A stretch of 64,000 bases of DNA from Burkholderiales bacterium (GTDB lineage: Bacteria; Pseudomonadota; Gammaproteobacteria; Burkholderiales; Burkholderiaceae_C), in assembly GCA_017302655.1 (NCBI GenBank), contig JAFLDE010000002.1:21993-85992 (forward strand), read 5' to 3'. Positions 6,020 to 25,462 of the stretch are shown piece by piece (the first letter of the stretch is position 1; each line of letters begins with the position of its first letter). The notes beneath the pieces are model-generated. The model saw only the letters and a list, made by a program, of their open reading frames with translations, was not told where the DNA came from and searched no databases. The position numbers and the translations under genes are program-made.

Positions 6020-6537
6020 GCGTGCAATGCCTTGTGAAAAACACGGTTGCGATACGAGACGCCGTCGATTCGGTAATCCGTCTCACCAACGTCTTGGTAG
6101 CCCTGTCGCGCGTAGAAGGCCAGCGCGCGCCCATTCCCTTCCCAGGCACTGAGCCAGGAGCAGGCCGCGCCTTGCCCACGCGCCAAGTCCTCCGCGGCCT
6201 TCAGCAAGCGTGCGCCCAGGCCTTGGCACTGCCGTCTTGGGTGCACGTAGAGCCTGAACAACTCGGCACCCTGCAGCGCAGGTCCAGCGCTAGCGCTCGG
6301 CCCGGTCGCTTGCAGTGTGAGGTCGGCAAAGCCTTCCAGCCATCCTTCGGTCTCTGCCACCAGCACGCGCACCCCTGGGTCCTGCAGCCGTGCCGCCAGC
6401 ACCGGCACAGCGAAGCGCTGCTGCACCTCGCTGGCGATGGCGCGGTTCACCCCTTGCGGCACGTAGGTGTCGAGGAAGACATGGCTCGCCAGCAGGCTCA
6501 GCCGTTCTGCATCCAAGGGCGTGGCCAGTCGAATCAA
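5995..6537 (-). CDS. GNAT family N-acetyltransferase
   Basis: LFRLYVHPRRQCQGLGARLL motif A and N..ALAFYARQGY motif. TTG start at 6537 overlaps the upstream TGA (TTGA); 3' end overlaps the Lrp start by 25 nt. Confidence 0.85.
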   Translation of the reverse strand: MIRLATPLDAERLSLLASHVFLDTYVPQGVNRAIASEVQQRFAVPVLAARLQDPGVRVLVAETEGWLEGFADLTLQATGPSASAGPALQGAELFRLYVHPRRQCQGLGARLLKAAEDLARGQGAACSWLSAWEGNGRALAFYARQGYQDVGETDYRIDGVSYRNRVFHKALHAWTTSTTS

Positions 6538-7490
6538 CGGAAGCGCTCGATGTCGCGCGCCAGGTAGAACCATTCCTGCCCTGCCTGTGCCTTGCTGTTG
6601 GGAAAGACGATGCAGCCCGCCACGGGCGCATGCACCGCCTCGCCGCTGGCGCGATGGCCAATCAATTCCCCTTCCGCCACCCGGTCGAAACTGACCCAGG
6701 GCTTGACGAAGTCGTCGTCCACATGATGCTTGTCCTCCACATGGTGCAGGCGCAAGCCGGCCATGCTGTGCACTGCAGGCACGGCACCGTCGATCAAACC
6801 AAAGTGCGTCAGCGTGTTCACGATCGCCTGGTAGGCCACCTCGGGGGCCTCGGTGTCCTGGTGCTGGCCGCATTCCAGCGTCAGTGCCATGCCCCCGGTG
6901 CTGCGCATGTACTCGGTGCTCCCCACGCCGTACTGCTCATCCAGGTCGACGCTGCTGCCCACCTCCCGACCGGCGAAACGCGAACGGCGCTGCGCCACGC
7001 CACCTGCGTAGGTGTCCAGCCAGCCATCCACGCCACGCTGCACACCCAGCACCTTGGCCCAGGCCACCTCCTCGTCGGCCTGACGGACGGGCTGCAGCGG
7101 GCCATCGTTGTTCTCAGGACCCACCATCACGAAAGGCTTGCCGTTGGCCTGGAATGAATGCAAGTCGAGCAGGATCTCGTGCCGTGCCATCAGCGGACAC
7201 AGCCAGTTGGCCACGTGATCCTCGAACTCCTTGGGCTCGTTCGTCGGGCGCAGGCGGCGGTTCAGGTTGCGGTCGCCGTTGCGTTGTTGCTTCTGGTAAG
7301 CCAGCGGGTTGCAGATGGGCACAAACGTGACGCAGCCACGCAGCAAGCGGCGTTCGTCGCGCTCGAATTCGGCAATCAGGCGGCGAATGGCCTGCGTGCC
7401 GCAAACCTCATTGCCGTGCACGGCCCCGGTGACGAGCAGGCGCCGGCCCGGTTCGACGGCGCTGAATTGGGTGGCTTGGAAAGAGTGCAT
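6534..7490 (-). CDS. M14 metallocarboxypeptidase superfamily (succinylglutamate desuccinylase/aspartoacylase-like)
   Basis: GAVHGNE (HxxE), NLNRR, LLDLHS, LTLECG motifs; start ATG 7490. Confidence 0.85.
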   Translation of the reverse strand: MHSFQATQFSAVEPGRRLLVTGAVHGNEVCGTQAIRRLIAEFERDERRLLRGCVTFVPICNPLAYQKQQRNGDRNLNRRLRPTNEPKEFEDHVANWLCPLMARHEILLDLHSFQANGKPFVMVGPENNDGPLQPVRQADEEVAWAKVLGVQRGVDGWLDTYAGGVAQRRSRFAGREVGSSVDLDEQYGVGSTEYMRSTGGMALTLECGQHQDTEAPEVAYQAIVNTLTHFGLIDGAVPAVHSMAGLRLHHVEDKHHVDDDFVKPWVSFDRVAEGELIGHRASGEAVHAPVAGCIVFPNSKAQAGQEWFYLARDIERFR

Positions 7491-7605
7491 GGCCGCCAGT
7501 CTGCCATCTGGGTCCTGGCGATCCCAACCCCATTCGAGCCGGTTATGGGTCGCGCGAAGGCTGCTATGTCTCCGACCCCAGCCAGCCACGTAGCCTTCGC
7601 CCCCG

Positions 7606-23619: not shown

Positions 23620-23624
23620 AGCCC

Positions 23625-24632
23625 ATGAATTTCATTCTGGCCCGCTTGCTGGGCCTGATTCCGACCCTGCTCGGCGTGACGCTGATGGCCTTCGCCTTGA
23701 TCCGCCTGATCCCTGGCGATCCGGTGGAGATCATGATGGGCGAGCGCACGCTGGAGCCCGAGCGCCACGCCGCGCTCATGAAGGAGCTCGGCCTCGACGC
23801 CTCGCTGCCGCAGCAGTACCTGAACTACCTGGGCGACCTGCTGCAAGGCGATCTGGGGCGCTCGCTGGTCACGCGCGAGCCGGTGGCCGCCGAGCTGGCG
23901 GCGCGCTTTCCCGCCACGCTGGAGCTGGCTTTCGCGGCGCTATGCGTGTCGGTCAGCCTGGGGCTGGTGACCGGCATCCTGGCGGCGCTGCGGCGCGGGG
24001 GCTGGCTGGACCGGCTGCTGATGACCGTGGCCACCATCGGCCACTCCATGCCGGTGTTCTGGTGGGCGCTGATCCTCATCATGTTCTTCTCGGTCGGGCT
24101 GGGCTGGACGCCGATCTCCGGCCGCCTGGCGGTCGAGTACGACATCGAACGACACACCGGCTTCATGCTCATCGATGCCTGGCGCAGCGGCCAGGCCGGT
24201 GCAGTGCAGAGCACCCTGCTGCACCTGCTGCTTCCCGCCTTCACCCTGGGCACCTACAGCATGGCTGTGGTGGCGCGCATGACGCGTGCCAGCTTGCTCG
24301 AAGTGCTGCGCGAGGACTACGTGCGCACCGCCCGCGCCAAGGGTCTGGCAGAACCGGTGGTGGTGTTGCGCCACGCGCTGCGCAATGCGCTGATTCCGGT
24401 CATCACCGTGGTCGGCCTGCAGGCCGGTGGCCTGCTGGCCGGCGCGGTGCTGACCGAAACGATCTTCAGCTGGCCGGGCATTGGCAAATGGATCATCGAT
24501 GCCATTGCCCGCCGCGATTACCCGGTGGTGCAAGCCGGCATCGTCGTCACCGCGTTCACCTTCATCGCCGTGAATCTGTTGGTGGACTTGCTTTACGGCC
24601 TGGCCGATCCGCGCCTGCGCAAGAAACCATGA
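23625..24632 (+). CDS. dppB: Dipeptide/oligopeptide ABC transporter permease
   Basis: LIPGDPV, GDLGRS, PATLEL, EDYVRTARAKGL (EAA-like), RRDYPVVQ. Confidence 0.92.
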   Translation: MNFILARLLGLIPTLLGVTLMAFALIRLIPGDPVEIMMGERTLEPERHAALMKELGLDASLPQQYLNYLGDLLQGDLGRSLVTREPVAAELAARFPATLELAFAALCVSVSLGLVTGILAALRRGGWLDRLLMTVATIGHSMPVFWWALILIMFFSVGLGWTPISGRLAVEYDIERHTGFMLIDAWRSGQAGAVQSTLLHLLLPAFTLGTYSMAVVARMTRASLLEVLREDYVRTARAKGLAEPVVVLRHALRNALIPVITVVGLQAGGLLAGAVLTETIFSWPGIGKWIIDAIARRDYPVVQAGIVVTAFTFIAVNLLVDLLYGLADPRLRKKP

Positions 24633-25462
24633 GGCCGCCAGCCTTTCCGAACTCTTTGAAGCTGCCGCTGGCGGTGTTGGTGCTACTCGTGCTGGCGGCG
24701 CTGCTCGCGCCCTGGATCGCACCGCACTCCCCCGTCGAACAGAACCGCGCGCTGCTGCTGGCTCCGCCGGTGTGGGTGGAAGGCGGCAGCAGCGCGCACT
24801 GGCTCGGCACCGACGAACTGGGCCGCGACATCCTGTCGCGGCTGCTGCATGGCGCGCGCATCAGCCTGGGCATCGGCGCAGCGGCGGTAGGGCTGGCGCT
24901 CATCCCTGGCGTGGTGCTGGGCCTGCTCGCCGCCTTCTACCAGCGCTGGCTGGGCACGGTGGTGCTGCGCCTGATGGACCTGCTGCTCGCATTGCCGGGG
25001 CTGCTGCTCGCCATCTGCGTGCTGGCGGTTCTAGGCCCCGGGCTGGTGAACACGGTGATCGCGATCGCCATCGGCGCCCTGCCCGGCATGACCCGCCTGA
25101 CCCGCGCCACCGCGCTGGCCGAGATGAGCAAGGGCTATGTGATGGCCTCGCAAGCGGCCGGTGCCAGCACGGTGCGCCTGATGTTCCGCACCGTGTTGCC
25201 GAATTGCACGGCGCCGCTCACGGTGAGCGCCACCCTGGCCTTCTCGGGCGCCATTCTGGAGGCCGCCGGACTGGGCTTCCTGGGCCTTGGGGTGCAGGCC
25301 CCGCTGCCCGAATGGGGTGCCATGCTGGCCGCCGCCCGCGACTACCACGAGCGCGCGCCCTGGACCGTGTTGCTGCCCGGTCTGGCCATCCTTGTGACCG
25401 TGCTGTGCGTGAACCTGCTGGGCGACGGCCTGCGCGACTGGCTGGATCCGAAGCTGCGCTGA
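24629..25462 (+). CDS. dppC: Dipeptide/oligopeptide ABC transporter permease
   Basis: HWLGTDELGRDILSRLLHGARISL, VLPN, EAAGLGFLGLG...PEWGAML, NLLGDGLRDWLDPK. Confidence 0.92.
   Translation: MRPPAFPNSLKLPLAVLVLLVLAALLAPWIAPHSPVEQNRALLLAPPVWVEGGSSAHWLGTDELGRDILSRLLHGARISLGIGAAAVGLALIPGVVLGLLAAFYQRWLGTVVLRLMDLLLALPGLLLAICVLAVLGPGLVNTVIAIAIGALPGMTRLTRATALAEMSKGYVMASQAAGASTVRLMFRTVLPNCTAPLTVSATLAFSGAILEAAGLGFLGLGVQAPLPEWGAMLAAARDYHERAPWTVLLPGLAILVTVLCVNLLGDGLRDWLDPKLR

Follow-up and report, generated by a model that had tools for sequence, protein, structure and literature searches.

The recovery of peptidoglycan fragments is known from the recycling pathway of Escherichia coli, from salvage in Tannerella forsythia and, indirectly, from a TonB transporter of Xanthomonas campestris. 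We compared these systems with a cluster of cell-wall genes around a TonB-dependent outer-membrane receptor, located in a 64,000-nucleotide stretch of a Burkholderiales genome (assembly GCA_017302655.1, contig JAFLDE010000002.1, positions 21,993 to 85,992 of the forward strand). This whole stretch is called the window, and its first letter is position 1. The cluster extends from 5600 to 25462. Judged from its sequence and that of its relatives, it is reasonably likely to be an accessory, TonB-receptor-centred locus for the uptake and catabolism of peptidoglycan fragments.

The window shares with E. coli recycling an AmpG-family permease, an outer-membrane AmiD lipoprotein, LdcA and MurQ, and AnmK, NagZ and Mpl are encoded elsewhere in the window's genome. 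It differs in that its genes are clustered with a TonB receptor and that cytoplasmic AmpD, MpaA and YcjG are missing. Its PBP4 has a lipobox, which E. coli PBP4 does not, and its additional members are a GHL10 protein, a NagX-like protein, a cytoplasmic SxxK serine hydrolase, a DadA-like dehydrogenase, an OCD-family enzyme and an AstE-type hydrolase. The window module is also accessory and not universal in its family. An earlier note on this DNA had stated that the recycling genes of E. coli are scattered and need no TonB receptor; the contrast broadly holds, except that E. coli has a small ycjG-mpaA-pgrR-mppA cluster. E. coli ddpXABCDF encodes a D-Ala-D-Ala dipeptidase and a Dpp-like transporter. 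Here the likeness is a Dpp-type importer coupled to the disposal of D-Ala peptides, and relatives of the window locus have a VanX-type dipeptidase, a family-5 binding protein and DppBCDF. The window differs in having only two permease genes, and its VanX-type gene lies on another contig (C182).

The TonB transporter NixC of X. campestris was indirectly implicated in the uptake of peptidoglycan degradation products (Boulanger et al. 2014, PMC4173781), and for outer-membrane uptake of wall fragments by Gram-negative bacteria our searches of the open-access literature gave only this indirect evidence. The Xanthomonas N-acetylglucosamine (GlcNAc) system (carbohydrate utilisation with a TonB-dependent transporter, CUT/Nix; PMC4173781) resembles the window as a proteobacterial utilisation locus centred on a TonB transporter, a likeness judged on the make-up of the locus. 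The window's genome also has a nag-type locus with a TonB receptor (contig C2). The Nix system is GlcNAc-regulated and GlcNAc-directed and lacks MurQ, LdcA, PBP4, AmiD and D-amino-acid genes, whereas the window receptor comes from a clade with peptidoglycan-specific neighbours.

In T. forsythia salvage (MurT-MurK-MurQ and AmpG; PMC5790795, PMC7670621) exogenous wall fragments are scavenged, and an AmpG-type permease is clustered with MurQ as in the window. T. forsythia is an auxotroph for N-acetylmuramic acid (MurNAc) that salvages for synthesis, whereas the window's genome has no MurK anywhere, and its locus has in addition a full branch for peptides and D-amino acids, together with a TonB receptor of the classical, non-SusC kind. 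The catalytic domain of Clostridioides difficile Cwp19 (PMC6016235, PDB 5oq2) is homologous to the window GHL10 protein, but Cwp19 is an S-layer-anchored Gram-positive autolysin and the window domain sits on a Gram-negative lipoprotein in a catabolic operon.

The earlier note had called the cluster similar to a polysaccharide utilisation locus (PUL). This holds loosely, in the sense of a proteobacterial CUT-type TonB locus; Pfam scans of every gene between 5600 and 28378 found no SusD family among the cluster proteins, as a Bacteroidota SusC/SusD PUL would have. The receptor carries Plug and barrel domains only, and, but for two Verrucomicrobiota loci, its relatives come mainly from Proteobacteria. 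We class the locus as a Xanthomonas-style TonB utilisation locus and not as a SusC/D PUL, the receptor being classed by its domains and not by comparison with SusC. The architecture of a CUT locus is present: a receptor, an AmpG-like major facilitator superfamily (MFS) permease with DppBC, three exported hydrolases, AsnC and LysR regulators, and a conserved linkage. Every enzyme family in the locus is already known, and no description of the cluster or of the receptor family was found in the open-access full-text literature.

Receptor clade and its neighbourhoods

12403..15237, plus strand: TonB-dependent outer-membrane receptor, 944 aa, with Pfam Plug and barrel domains
15263..15286, plus strand: intrinsic-terminator-like hairpin, 10-bp stem with 7 G-C pairs, T-rich tail

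The strong terminator-like hairpin that follows the receptor gene suggests that this gene is monocistronic. A receptor-profile scan was made with one genome per species; the 80 best loci were kept, and neighbourhoods were judged on the 32 best. Cell-wall genes stood beside the receptor in 30 of these 32, and one of the two exceptions was a 2-kb contig. The neighbours were LdcA, PBP4, a VanX-type D-Ala-D-Ala dipeptidase, a family-5 binding protein, DppBCDF, AmiD and GHL10, and further MurQ, DadA, AmpG-like, SxxK, AstE-type and NagX-like proteins, LdcA being the most constant. A linked receptor was found in Janthinobacterium, Duganella, Massilia, Pseudoduganella, Rugamonas, Roseateles, Pelomonas and a Brevundimonas. 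Members of the clade belong to Burkholderiales and also to Caulobacterales, Sphingomonadales and Verrucomicrobiota.

The window receptor is 75% identical to a protein of Inhella gelatinilytica, which carries almost the same locus, and 74% identical to a Chitinimonas protein whose gene adjoins those for a BadF-type kinase and AmiD. In Massilia, Pseudoduganella and Chitinimonas the receptor gene has AmiD and GHL10 at its flanks. Roseateles species have DAO, Beta-lactamase2, LdcA, OCD and PBP4 around the receptor and no sugar genes within 10 kb, and some Sphingomonadales have the receptor with LdcA only.

In a FastTree phylogeny of 98 receptors there was one well-supported (starred) split, 63 against 35. 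All 48 cell-wall-linked receptors fell among the 63 and none among the 35. The cell-wall-link label needed 6 changes on this tree, compared with 22.8 on average after shuffling, and none of 500 shuffles came as low.

The receptor clade was present in 11 of 41 related genomes, namely nine of the 11 same-genus genomes (the window's own included) and one each of two other genera. All 11 had MurQ, often adjacent, compared with 2 of the 30 others (Fisher p = 2.5e-8, not corrected for phylogeny), and high-identity AmpG-like orthologues followed the same distribution. A complete same-genus genome (G007) lacked the receptor, MurQ and the AmpG orthologue together, and the module occurred in 3 of 31 genera sampled.

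The earlier note had linked the TonB receptor to the cell-wall cluster and had proposed an examination of synteny across Burkholderiales. Cell-wall clustering recurs around relatives of the receptor in many genomes, and it therefore exceeds chance. Clade-specific synteny, co-occurrence with MurQ and AmpG, and a cis element common with dadA-SxxK-ldcA (see below) argue that the receptor belongs to a functional module with the cell-wall genes and that the link is not due to chance. The linkage proposed in the note is thus borne out by neighbourhoods, tree split, co-occurrence and the common element.

The nearest outgroup of the window/Inhella/Chitinimonas receptor subclade was an alphaproteobacterial receptor from a Brevundimonas metagenome-assembled genome (locus L001, 59% identity), with AmpG-like, LdcA and AstE-type neighbours. 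This outgroup suggests transfer of the module between classes. On contig C57 of the window's genome (56001-63641), a second LdcA-like gene stands directly upstream of another TonB receptor (975 aa), followed by TonB, ExbB and two ExbD genes; this receptor lies outside the cell-wall-linked clade, with ~23-34% identity in tblastn pieces. On contig C182 (19222-23396) there are a family-5 binding protein, a LysR regulator, a VanX-type dipeptidase (PF01427, E = 5e-28) and an LdcA-like protein that carries an export signal. Genes of this type adjoin the receptor in Oxalobacteraceae and stand at a separate place in the window's genome.

The 37-nt element and the probable cargo

7531..7567, plus strand: 37-nt cis element, copy 1, in the divergent promoter region, ending 39 nt before the dadA-like start codon
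12243..12279, plus strand: 37-nt cis element, copy 2, ending 124 nt before the receptor start codon

The element was found by promoter comparison between the window and Inhella and then other loci, and its consensus is CATTCC-N4-RGTTATGG-N12/13-AAGCATTCAT. The copy at 7531-7567 has the pattern CAT-N7-GGTTATG-N10-AAGC-N3-YAT, and the orthologous Inhella site keeps GAGCCGGTTATG. A position weight matrix (PWM) was built from ten sites, all from other genomes. In the window's own 4.4-Mb genome the two copies scored 28.0 bits (7531-7567) and 27.6 bits (12243-12279) and ranked first and second among 8.85 million positions; the third-ranking position had 19.1, and the distribution had a mean of -43 and an sd of 11. 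The element also stands 5' of cell-wall-linked receptors in Janthinobacterium, Rugamonas, Massilia and Pseudoduganella (Oxalobacteraceae), in Roseateles and Pelomonas (Sphaerotilaceae) and in Chitinimonas, and in some genomes upstream of dadA or murQ. Inhella has two scored sites, upstream of dadA (38.5 bits) and murQ (26.8 bits). As the element is common to both, the receptor and the dadA-SxxK-ldcA operon are probably co-regulated.

The spacings of the element do not fit a sigma-70, sigma-54 or extracytoplasmic function (ECF) promoter, and a scan for the sigma-70 consensus gave no promoter. On its own, the short motif GGTTATS was not enriched in the window (4 found, 2.3 expected), and only the extended 37-nt PWM is specific. 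A look-alike motif pair on contig C24 lies between minCDE and metG, in a region with DnaA-box-like sequence, and is unrelated. An Rfam scan of 5000-26000 (E ≤ 0.1) gave no match, hence no known riboswitch or leader. Among the regulator genes, AsnC is conserved only in the window's genome and Inhella. The LysR protein was rejected as a specific relative of PgrR or AmpR (24% identity to E. coli PgrR); its gene is absent from the Inhella locus and is probably an insertion. Between the second element and the receptor start (12290-12330) there is an 8-bp perfect palindrome, GTCATGAC within CCATAGGTCATGACATGG, which may serve as a second operator; palindromes of the form GTAATGC-N-CATTAC occupy a similar position in Massilia loci.

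Solutes above ~600 Da do not pass general porins, and the mass of a disaccharide-tetrapeptide is approximately 900 Da. Our best guess is that the cargo may be peptide-bearing fragments beyond this limit, either muropeptides or cross-linked stem-peptide dimers, rather than glycan, because the most constant partners of the receptor process peptides and the 37-nt element ties it to dadA-SxxK-ldcA. Across the relatives, sugar genes were less constant partners than peptide-processing genes. If the cargo is peptide-bearing, the sugar branch would be an add-on in some lineages, the window's included.

A stricter form of this idea is that the receptor imports peptide only (stem peptides with D-amino acids, D-Ala-D-Ala) and that murQ, ampG, GHL10 and amiD form a separate neighbouring recycling unit. 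It would explain why the most constant partners are LdcA, PBP4, the VanX-type dipeptidase, the family-5 binding protein, DadA and SxxK, why Roseateles lacks nearby sugar genes and some Sphingomonadales keep LdcA alone, and why in the window the element is at the receptor and the dadA operon and not at the OCD-murQ operon. The universal presence of MurQ in the 11 receptor-positive relatives, often adjacent, the weaker element copy upstream of murQ in Inhella, and the AmiD and GHL10 genes that flank the receptor in three genera all speak against such a separation, and we consider it distinctly unlikely.

Gene inventory and the proposed flow

Genes were picked in the window (~68% G+C) by codon-position G+C, and identities were taken from Pfam and NCBIfam.

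5600..6019, minus strand: AsnC/Lrp-type regulator (Pfam HTH_AsnC-type and AsnC_trans_reg); Inhella orthologue (locus L085) 86% identical
5995..6573, minus strand: GNAT acetyltransferase (Acetyltransf_1, E = 3e-13); no counterpart in the Inhella locus L085
6534..7490, minus strand: AstE/AspA-family zinc hydrolase, cytoplasmic, HGNE motif (PF24827, E = 1.4e-16)
7606..8853, plus strand: DadA-like D-amino-acid dehydrogenase dependent on flavin adenine dinucleotide (PF01266, E = 5e-59; NF001933 403 bits, cut-off 383)
8850..9863, plus strand: SxxK/SxN/KTG serine hydrolase, 337 aa, class A beta-lactamase fold (family alignment and AlphaFold2 model)
9842..10750, plus strand: probable LD-carboxypeptidase LdcA, tetrapeptide to tripeptide and D-Ala (Peptidase_S66 and S66C)
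10730..11677, minus strand: LysR-type regulator, divergent from the small exported open reading frame (ORF) (Pfam HTH_1 and LysR_substrate)
11821..12163, plus strand: small exported ORF, 113 aa, weakly DUF4148-like (E = 0.019, below threshold)
15398..16306, plus strand: OCD/mu-crystallin family enzyme (PF02423, E = 8e-39)
16303..17769, plus strand: PBP4-type DD-endopeptidase/carboxypeptidase, lipoprotein (PF02113, E = 9e-65; TIGR00666)
17766..18653, plus strand: MurQ, MurNAc-6-phosphate etherase (TIGR00274, NF003915)
18650..20002, plus strand: AmpG-family MFS permease (TIGR00901 180 bits, under cut-off)
19999..21129, plus strand: NagX/HGSNAT-like polytopic membrane acetyltransferase (PF07786, E = 1.9e-11; NagX_SO_3504 157 bits, under cut-off)
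21111..22673, plus strand: GHL10 lipoprotein, Cwp19-type (PF02638, E = 1.6e-59, 202 bits)
22670..23539, plus strand: AmiD-type N-acetylmuramoyl-L-alanine amidase lipoprotein (PF01510 and PF01471, PG_binding_1)
23625..24632, plus strand: DppB-type ATP-binding cassette (ABC) permease (NF008161 411 bits, cut-off 590); 73% identical to the Inhella locus gene
24629..25462, plus strand: DppC-type ABC permease, last gene of the locus

All members named by the earlier note were found again by Pfam and NCBIfam profiles. Its list did not include the NagX-like gene (19999-21129), the AstE/AspA-type gene (6534-7490), the LysR gene and the small ORF, nor the AsnC and GNAT genes, which fall just beyond its 5' boundary (5600-6573). 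The GNAT gene is probably not a core part, as it is absent from the Inhella locus, and the small exported ORF (11821-12163) probably does not belong to the system.

Two operons frame the receptor. The three-gene operon dadA-SxxK-ldcA, in which dadA overlaps the SxxK gene by 4 nt, is divergent from the minus-strand AsnC, GNAT and AstE-type genes. The nine-gene operon from OCD to DppC has a 4-nt overlap at six junctions and a 19-nt overlap at one; unlike these, the AmiD-DppB junction is an 85-nt gap. G+C-rich palindromic sequences resembling repetitive extragenic palindromes, e.g. GCCGGCATGCCGGC, occur in this gap (23540-23624) and in that between the receptor and OCD (15287-15397). The genes past 25462 are unrelated (GT4, MsbA, ilvC, ilvB, NAD synthase and a proton-pumping pyrophosphatase).

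PBP4, AmiD and GHL10 all had lipoboxes, as the earlier note had predicted: LLAGC|A in PBP4, LLPAC|A preceded by an RR motif in GHL10, and LLAAC|Q in AmiD. These were conserved in relatives, that of AmiD in 11 of 11 orthologues. The three hydrolases are lipoproteins without Asp at +2. By the +2 sorting rule and the example of E. coli AmiD, an anchorage at the periplasmic side of the outer membrane is probable. PBP4 exceeded the TIGR00666 cut-off (161.9 bits against 107.8). The GHL10 protein aligned with the Cwp19 catalytic domain (PDB 5oq2) over ~380 residues (E = 5e-78). Lytic transglycosylase activity was demonstrated for Cwp19 (PMC6016235), and the window protein is probably a lytic transglycosylase too. 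Its product would then be 1,6-anhydroMurNAc, from which AnmK would make the substrate of MurQ.

The SxxK protein had no Pfam match at E ≤ 0.001, and its Beta-lactamase2 match was weak (PF13354, E = 0.0022, 17.8 bits, cut-off 22). In an alignment of 30 family members, which were found mainly in Inhella, Roseateles and Pelomonas, S120xxK123 and S165xN167 were invariant, as were K277 and G279 of the K-T/I-G motif. The AlphaFold model had a pLDDT (predicted local distance difference test) of 96, and the top Foldseek matches were class A beta-lactamases (probability 1.0, ~15% identity). A signal peptide, as a secreted beta-lactamase would have, was found in none of the 30 members. For a cytoplasmic enzyme of penicillin-binding fold that is co-translated with LdcA and DadA, the simplest reading is that of a candidate DD-peptidase (DD-carboxypeptidase) acting on imported stem peptides.

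PBP4, AmpG and AmpD control AmpC induction in Pseudomonas. Together with the beta-lactamase fold of the SxxK protein and the presence of a LysR gene, this could suggest a beta-lactam sensing or resistance module, with AmpG/AmpD-like signalling, PBP4 as sentinel and an AmpR-like LysR protein. We find this barely credible. An SxxK family without signal peptide cannot meet beta-lactams in the periplasm, the LysR gene is not divergent from the SxxK gene and is missing in Inhella, there is no AmpC, and MurQ, DadA, Dpp and the TonB receptor are also part of the module.

For LdcA both S66 domains were present (E = 1.5e-27 and 4.9e-34), and the E. coli equivalog NF008424 gave 131 bits (cut-off 378). 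The AstE/AspA-type protein had weak PDB matches to members of the AstE/AspA family, and its gene is conserved beside LdcA in six loci (L001, L025, L029, L031, L032, L085). It was rejected as an MpaA orthologue (E = 0.41 in BLASTP against the E. coli protein, with an alignment limited to the HGxE region). It is a candidate hydrolase of stem peptides or of N-acyl-D-Glu. Because the genome has neither MpaA nor YcjG, it is also a candidate for the missing step, the hydrolysis of L-Ala-D-Glu or gamma-D-Glu-mDAP (mDAP, meso-diaminopimelic acid). The OCD-family enzyme fell under the cut-off of all NCBIfam equivalogs and by its family may be an imino-acid reductase or an amino-acid dehydrogenase. The OCD-PBP4 pair is always kept in Sphaerotilaceae-type loci (L028, L085, L111, L112). 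That DadA and OCD convert D- to L-amino acids is speculation; the membership of Pseudomonas DauB, which works with the D-arginine dehydrogenase DauA, in the OCD family was not confirmed in the open-access literature.

MurQ, single-copy in the genome, passed both equivalog cut-offs (TIGR00274 302.8 bits, cut-off 302; NF003915 352.9 bits, cut-off 168). The AmpG-like permease stayed under the AmpG cut-offs (TIGR00901 180.5 bits against 350; PRK11010 96 bits against 756), yet it is the best match of E. coli AmpG in the genome. Of three AmpG-like paralogues scored on TIGR00901 none reached the cut-off, and the window copy was highest; a fourth AmpG-like MFS (contig C138) was seen by tblastn alone. 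By sequence, the window protein is a divergent AmpG family member and a putative muropeptide permease. The NagX-like gene is conserved in loci L085, L029 and L032.

A complete Dpp/Opp importer was not found at the locus, which has DppB and DppC and neither an ATPase nor a binding-protein gene for them. The nearest Dpp ATPases in the genome were 49% and 45% identical (contigs C79 and C122). Unless they are a remnant, DppBC would depend on ATPases and a binding protein of other systems.

A tblastn search with the Inhella and Chitinimonas locus kinases gave no BadF/BcrAD-type kinase in the genome at E ≤ 1e-3. Without such a kinase, only anhydroMurNAc would reach MurQ, via AnmK, which is consistent with GHL10 as a lytic transglycosylase. 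The earlier note had rightly reported AnmK and NagZ as missing from the window; both are encoded elsewhere in the genome (contigs C139 and C101). The downstream pathway (AnmK, a GH3 protein of NagZ size, Mpl, NagA and NagB-II) is scattered over other contigs. The nag-type locus on contig C2 (35756-46737) codes for a 955-aa TonB receptor, a 498-aa GH3 protein, a NagB-II-type SIS protein, NagA, a GntR regulator and an AmpG-like MFS permease that shares 41% identity with the window's. The steps that turn the product of MurQ, GlcNAc-6-phosphate, into fructose-6-phosphate are supplied there.

From homology and gene context, the flow through the locus may be proposed as follows. The receptor would pull across the outer membrane those soluble wall fragments that exceed the size limit of porins, namely muropeptides, short oligomers of glycan and peptide, or cross-linked stem peptides. 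In the periplasm, PBP4 would cut D-Ala-mDAP cross-links and terminal D-Ala, AmiD would strip stem peptides off MurNAc, and the Cwp19-type GHL10 enzyme would convert glycan to GlcNAc-1,6-anhydroMurNAc. The NagX-like acetyltransferase may re-acetylate de-N-acetylated sugars. The AmpG-like permease would import the disaccharide and DppBC the free peptides, the latter relying on a binding protein and ATPases from other loci. Cytoplasmic NagZ and AnmK and then MurQ would lead the sugar to GlcNAc-6-phosphate, which NagA and NagB-II of the separate nag locus would take to fructose-6-phosphate. The SxxK enzyme, LdcA and the AstE/AspA-type hydrolase would dismantle the peptide, and the DadA-like dehydrogenase, perhaps with the OCD-family enzyme, would dispose of the D-amino acids.

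Elsewhere in the window, two ORFs with coding-type codon bias (966 aa, 39991-42891, minus strand; 306 aa, 39082-40002) had no Pfam match at E ≤ 1e-5. A FemAB_like gene (PF04339, 43104-44231) and a gene with weak phage-tail-sheath domains (45167-46651) lie amid housekeeping genes.

Foreign fragments or own wall

The earlier note had read the cluster as a locus for foraging on foreign cell walls. The functional module, the membership of the receptor and the accessory distribution stand. What did not hold is a clean separation of this role from own-wall recycling. In E. coli, the substrate of AmiD and PBP4 is the bacterium's own sacculus. The whole window locus might likewise do only housekeeping recycling, with a receptor that recaptures leaked own fragments or is a bystander. 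The rank of the window permease as best match of E. coli AmpG, and as the highest paralogue on TIGR00901, would agree with this, as would the missing cytoplasmic AmpD, AmiD being the sole AmpD/AmiD-type gene with a peptidoglycan-binding domain, and the Mpl gene elsewhere in the genome. Such a housekeeping function is hard to reconcile with a module that 28 of the 31 sampled genera, and also a complete genome of the same genus, do without. Own-wall fragments also arise in the periplasm and need no outer-membrane importer, and the genes lead to breakdown (MurQ, DadA), not re-use. Finally, the receptor linkage is conserved across families, and its cis element is common with the peptide-catabolic operon. 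We therefore consider recycling of the own wall alone rather unlikely.

A nutritional role fits better than housekeeping because the module is accessory, being limited to few genera and missing from the complete same-genus genome. The patchy distribution, the presence of the receptor and a pathway that ends in breakdown favour an accessory catabolic role. The genome, which is 99.96% complete, has paralogues of LdcA (two), PBP4 and DadA elsewhere. The idea that the locus consists purely of accessory paralogues is weakened by its AmpG-like gene, the best AmpG homologue, and by the missing cytoplasmic AmpD. The locus probably serves both own-wall recycling and, via the receptor, exogenous fragments.

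Several points weigh against a locus for the uptake and catabolism of foreign fragments. The receptor's substrate is judged from its neighbours only, its best NCBIfam matches are weak ones to haem and siderophore receptor families, and 12 clade receptors, mostly from Sphingomonadales, had no cell-wall genes of the query panel within 6 kb. The receptor tree was built with FastTree only. The OCD-to-DppC operon has no good copy of the 37-nt element, and this motif could be a promoter or an operator. The genome has only two Amidase_2 genes, both for lipoproteins, from which it follows that there is no cytoplasmic AmpD; with the best AmpG homologue in the locus, own-wall recycling could be its main job. 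The second Amidase_2 gene (contig C175, ~17480-18100, minus strand) encodes a 205-aa lipoprotein (LLAAC) and not a cytoplasmic AmpD. The window copy also lacks the BadF/BcrAD-type sugar kinase, which in Inhella sits between GHL10 and AmiD, and the DppD and DppF genes that Inhella has at the locus, and there is no binding-protein gene either.

The kinase is at the locus in both Inhella and Chitinimonas. Compared with Inhella, the window locus has gained the LysR gene, the small ORF and the GNAT gene, and it carries OCD-PBP4 at the head of the murQ operon, a pair that in Inhella is divergent from the receptor.

The earlier note had also suggested a bacteriolytic lifestyle. This is not supported, as the hydrolases are lipoproteins without Asp at +2 and the locus encodes neither a secreted lysin nor a secretion system. 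Scavenging of fragments that are already in solution is a better reading than active lysis of other cells.

It is about evenly balanced whether the receptor clade is a dedicated TonB transporter family for peptidoglycan fragments, with its own 37-nt control element and regulator. Cultured relatives (Inhella gelatinilytica, Roseateles, Massilia, Janthinobacterium) carry the locus, so that ordinary genetics and growth assays are possible. The candidates open to such tests are the receptor family, the periplasmic set of lipoprotein hydrolases, the cytoplasmic peptidase family of beta-lactamase fold, and the cis element as a means of finding the regulator. Peptidoglycan is a large, D-amino-acid-rich pool of dead microbial matter. 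If the proposed role is true, the receptor clade would give muropeptides or cross-linked stem peptides their first defined route of import through the outer membrane, and it would be a genetic marker for consumers of cell-wall necromass in fresh water and soil.

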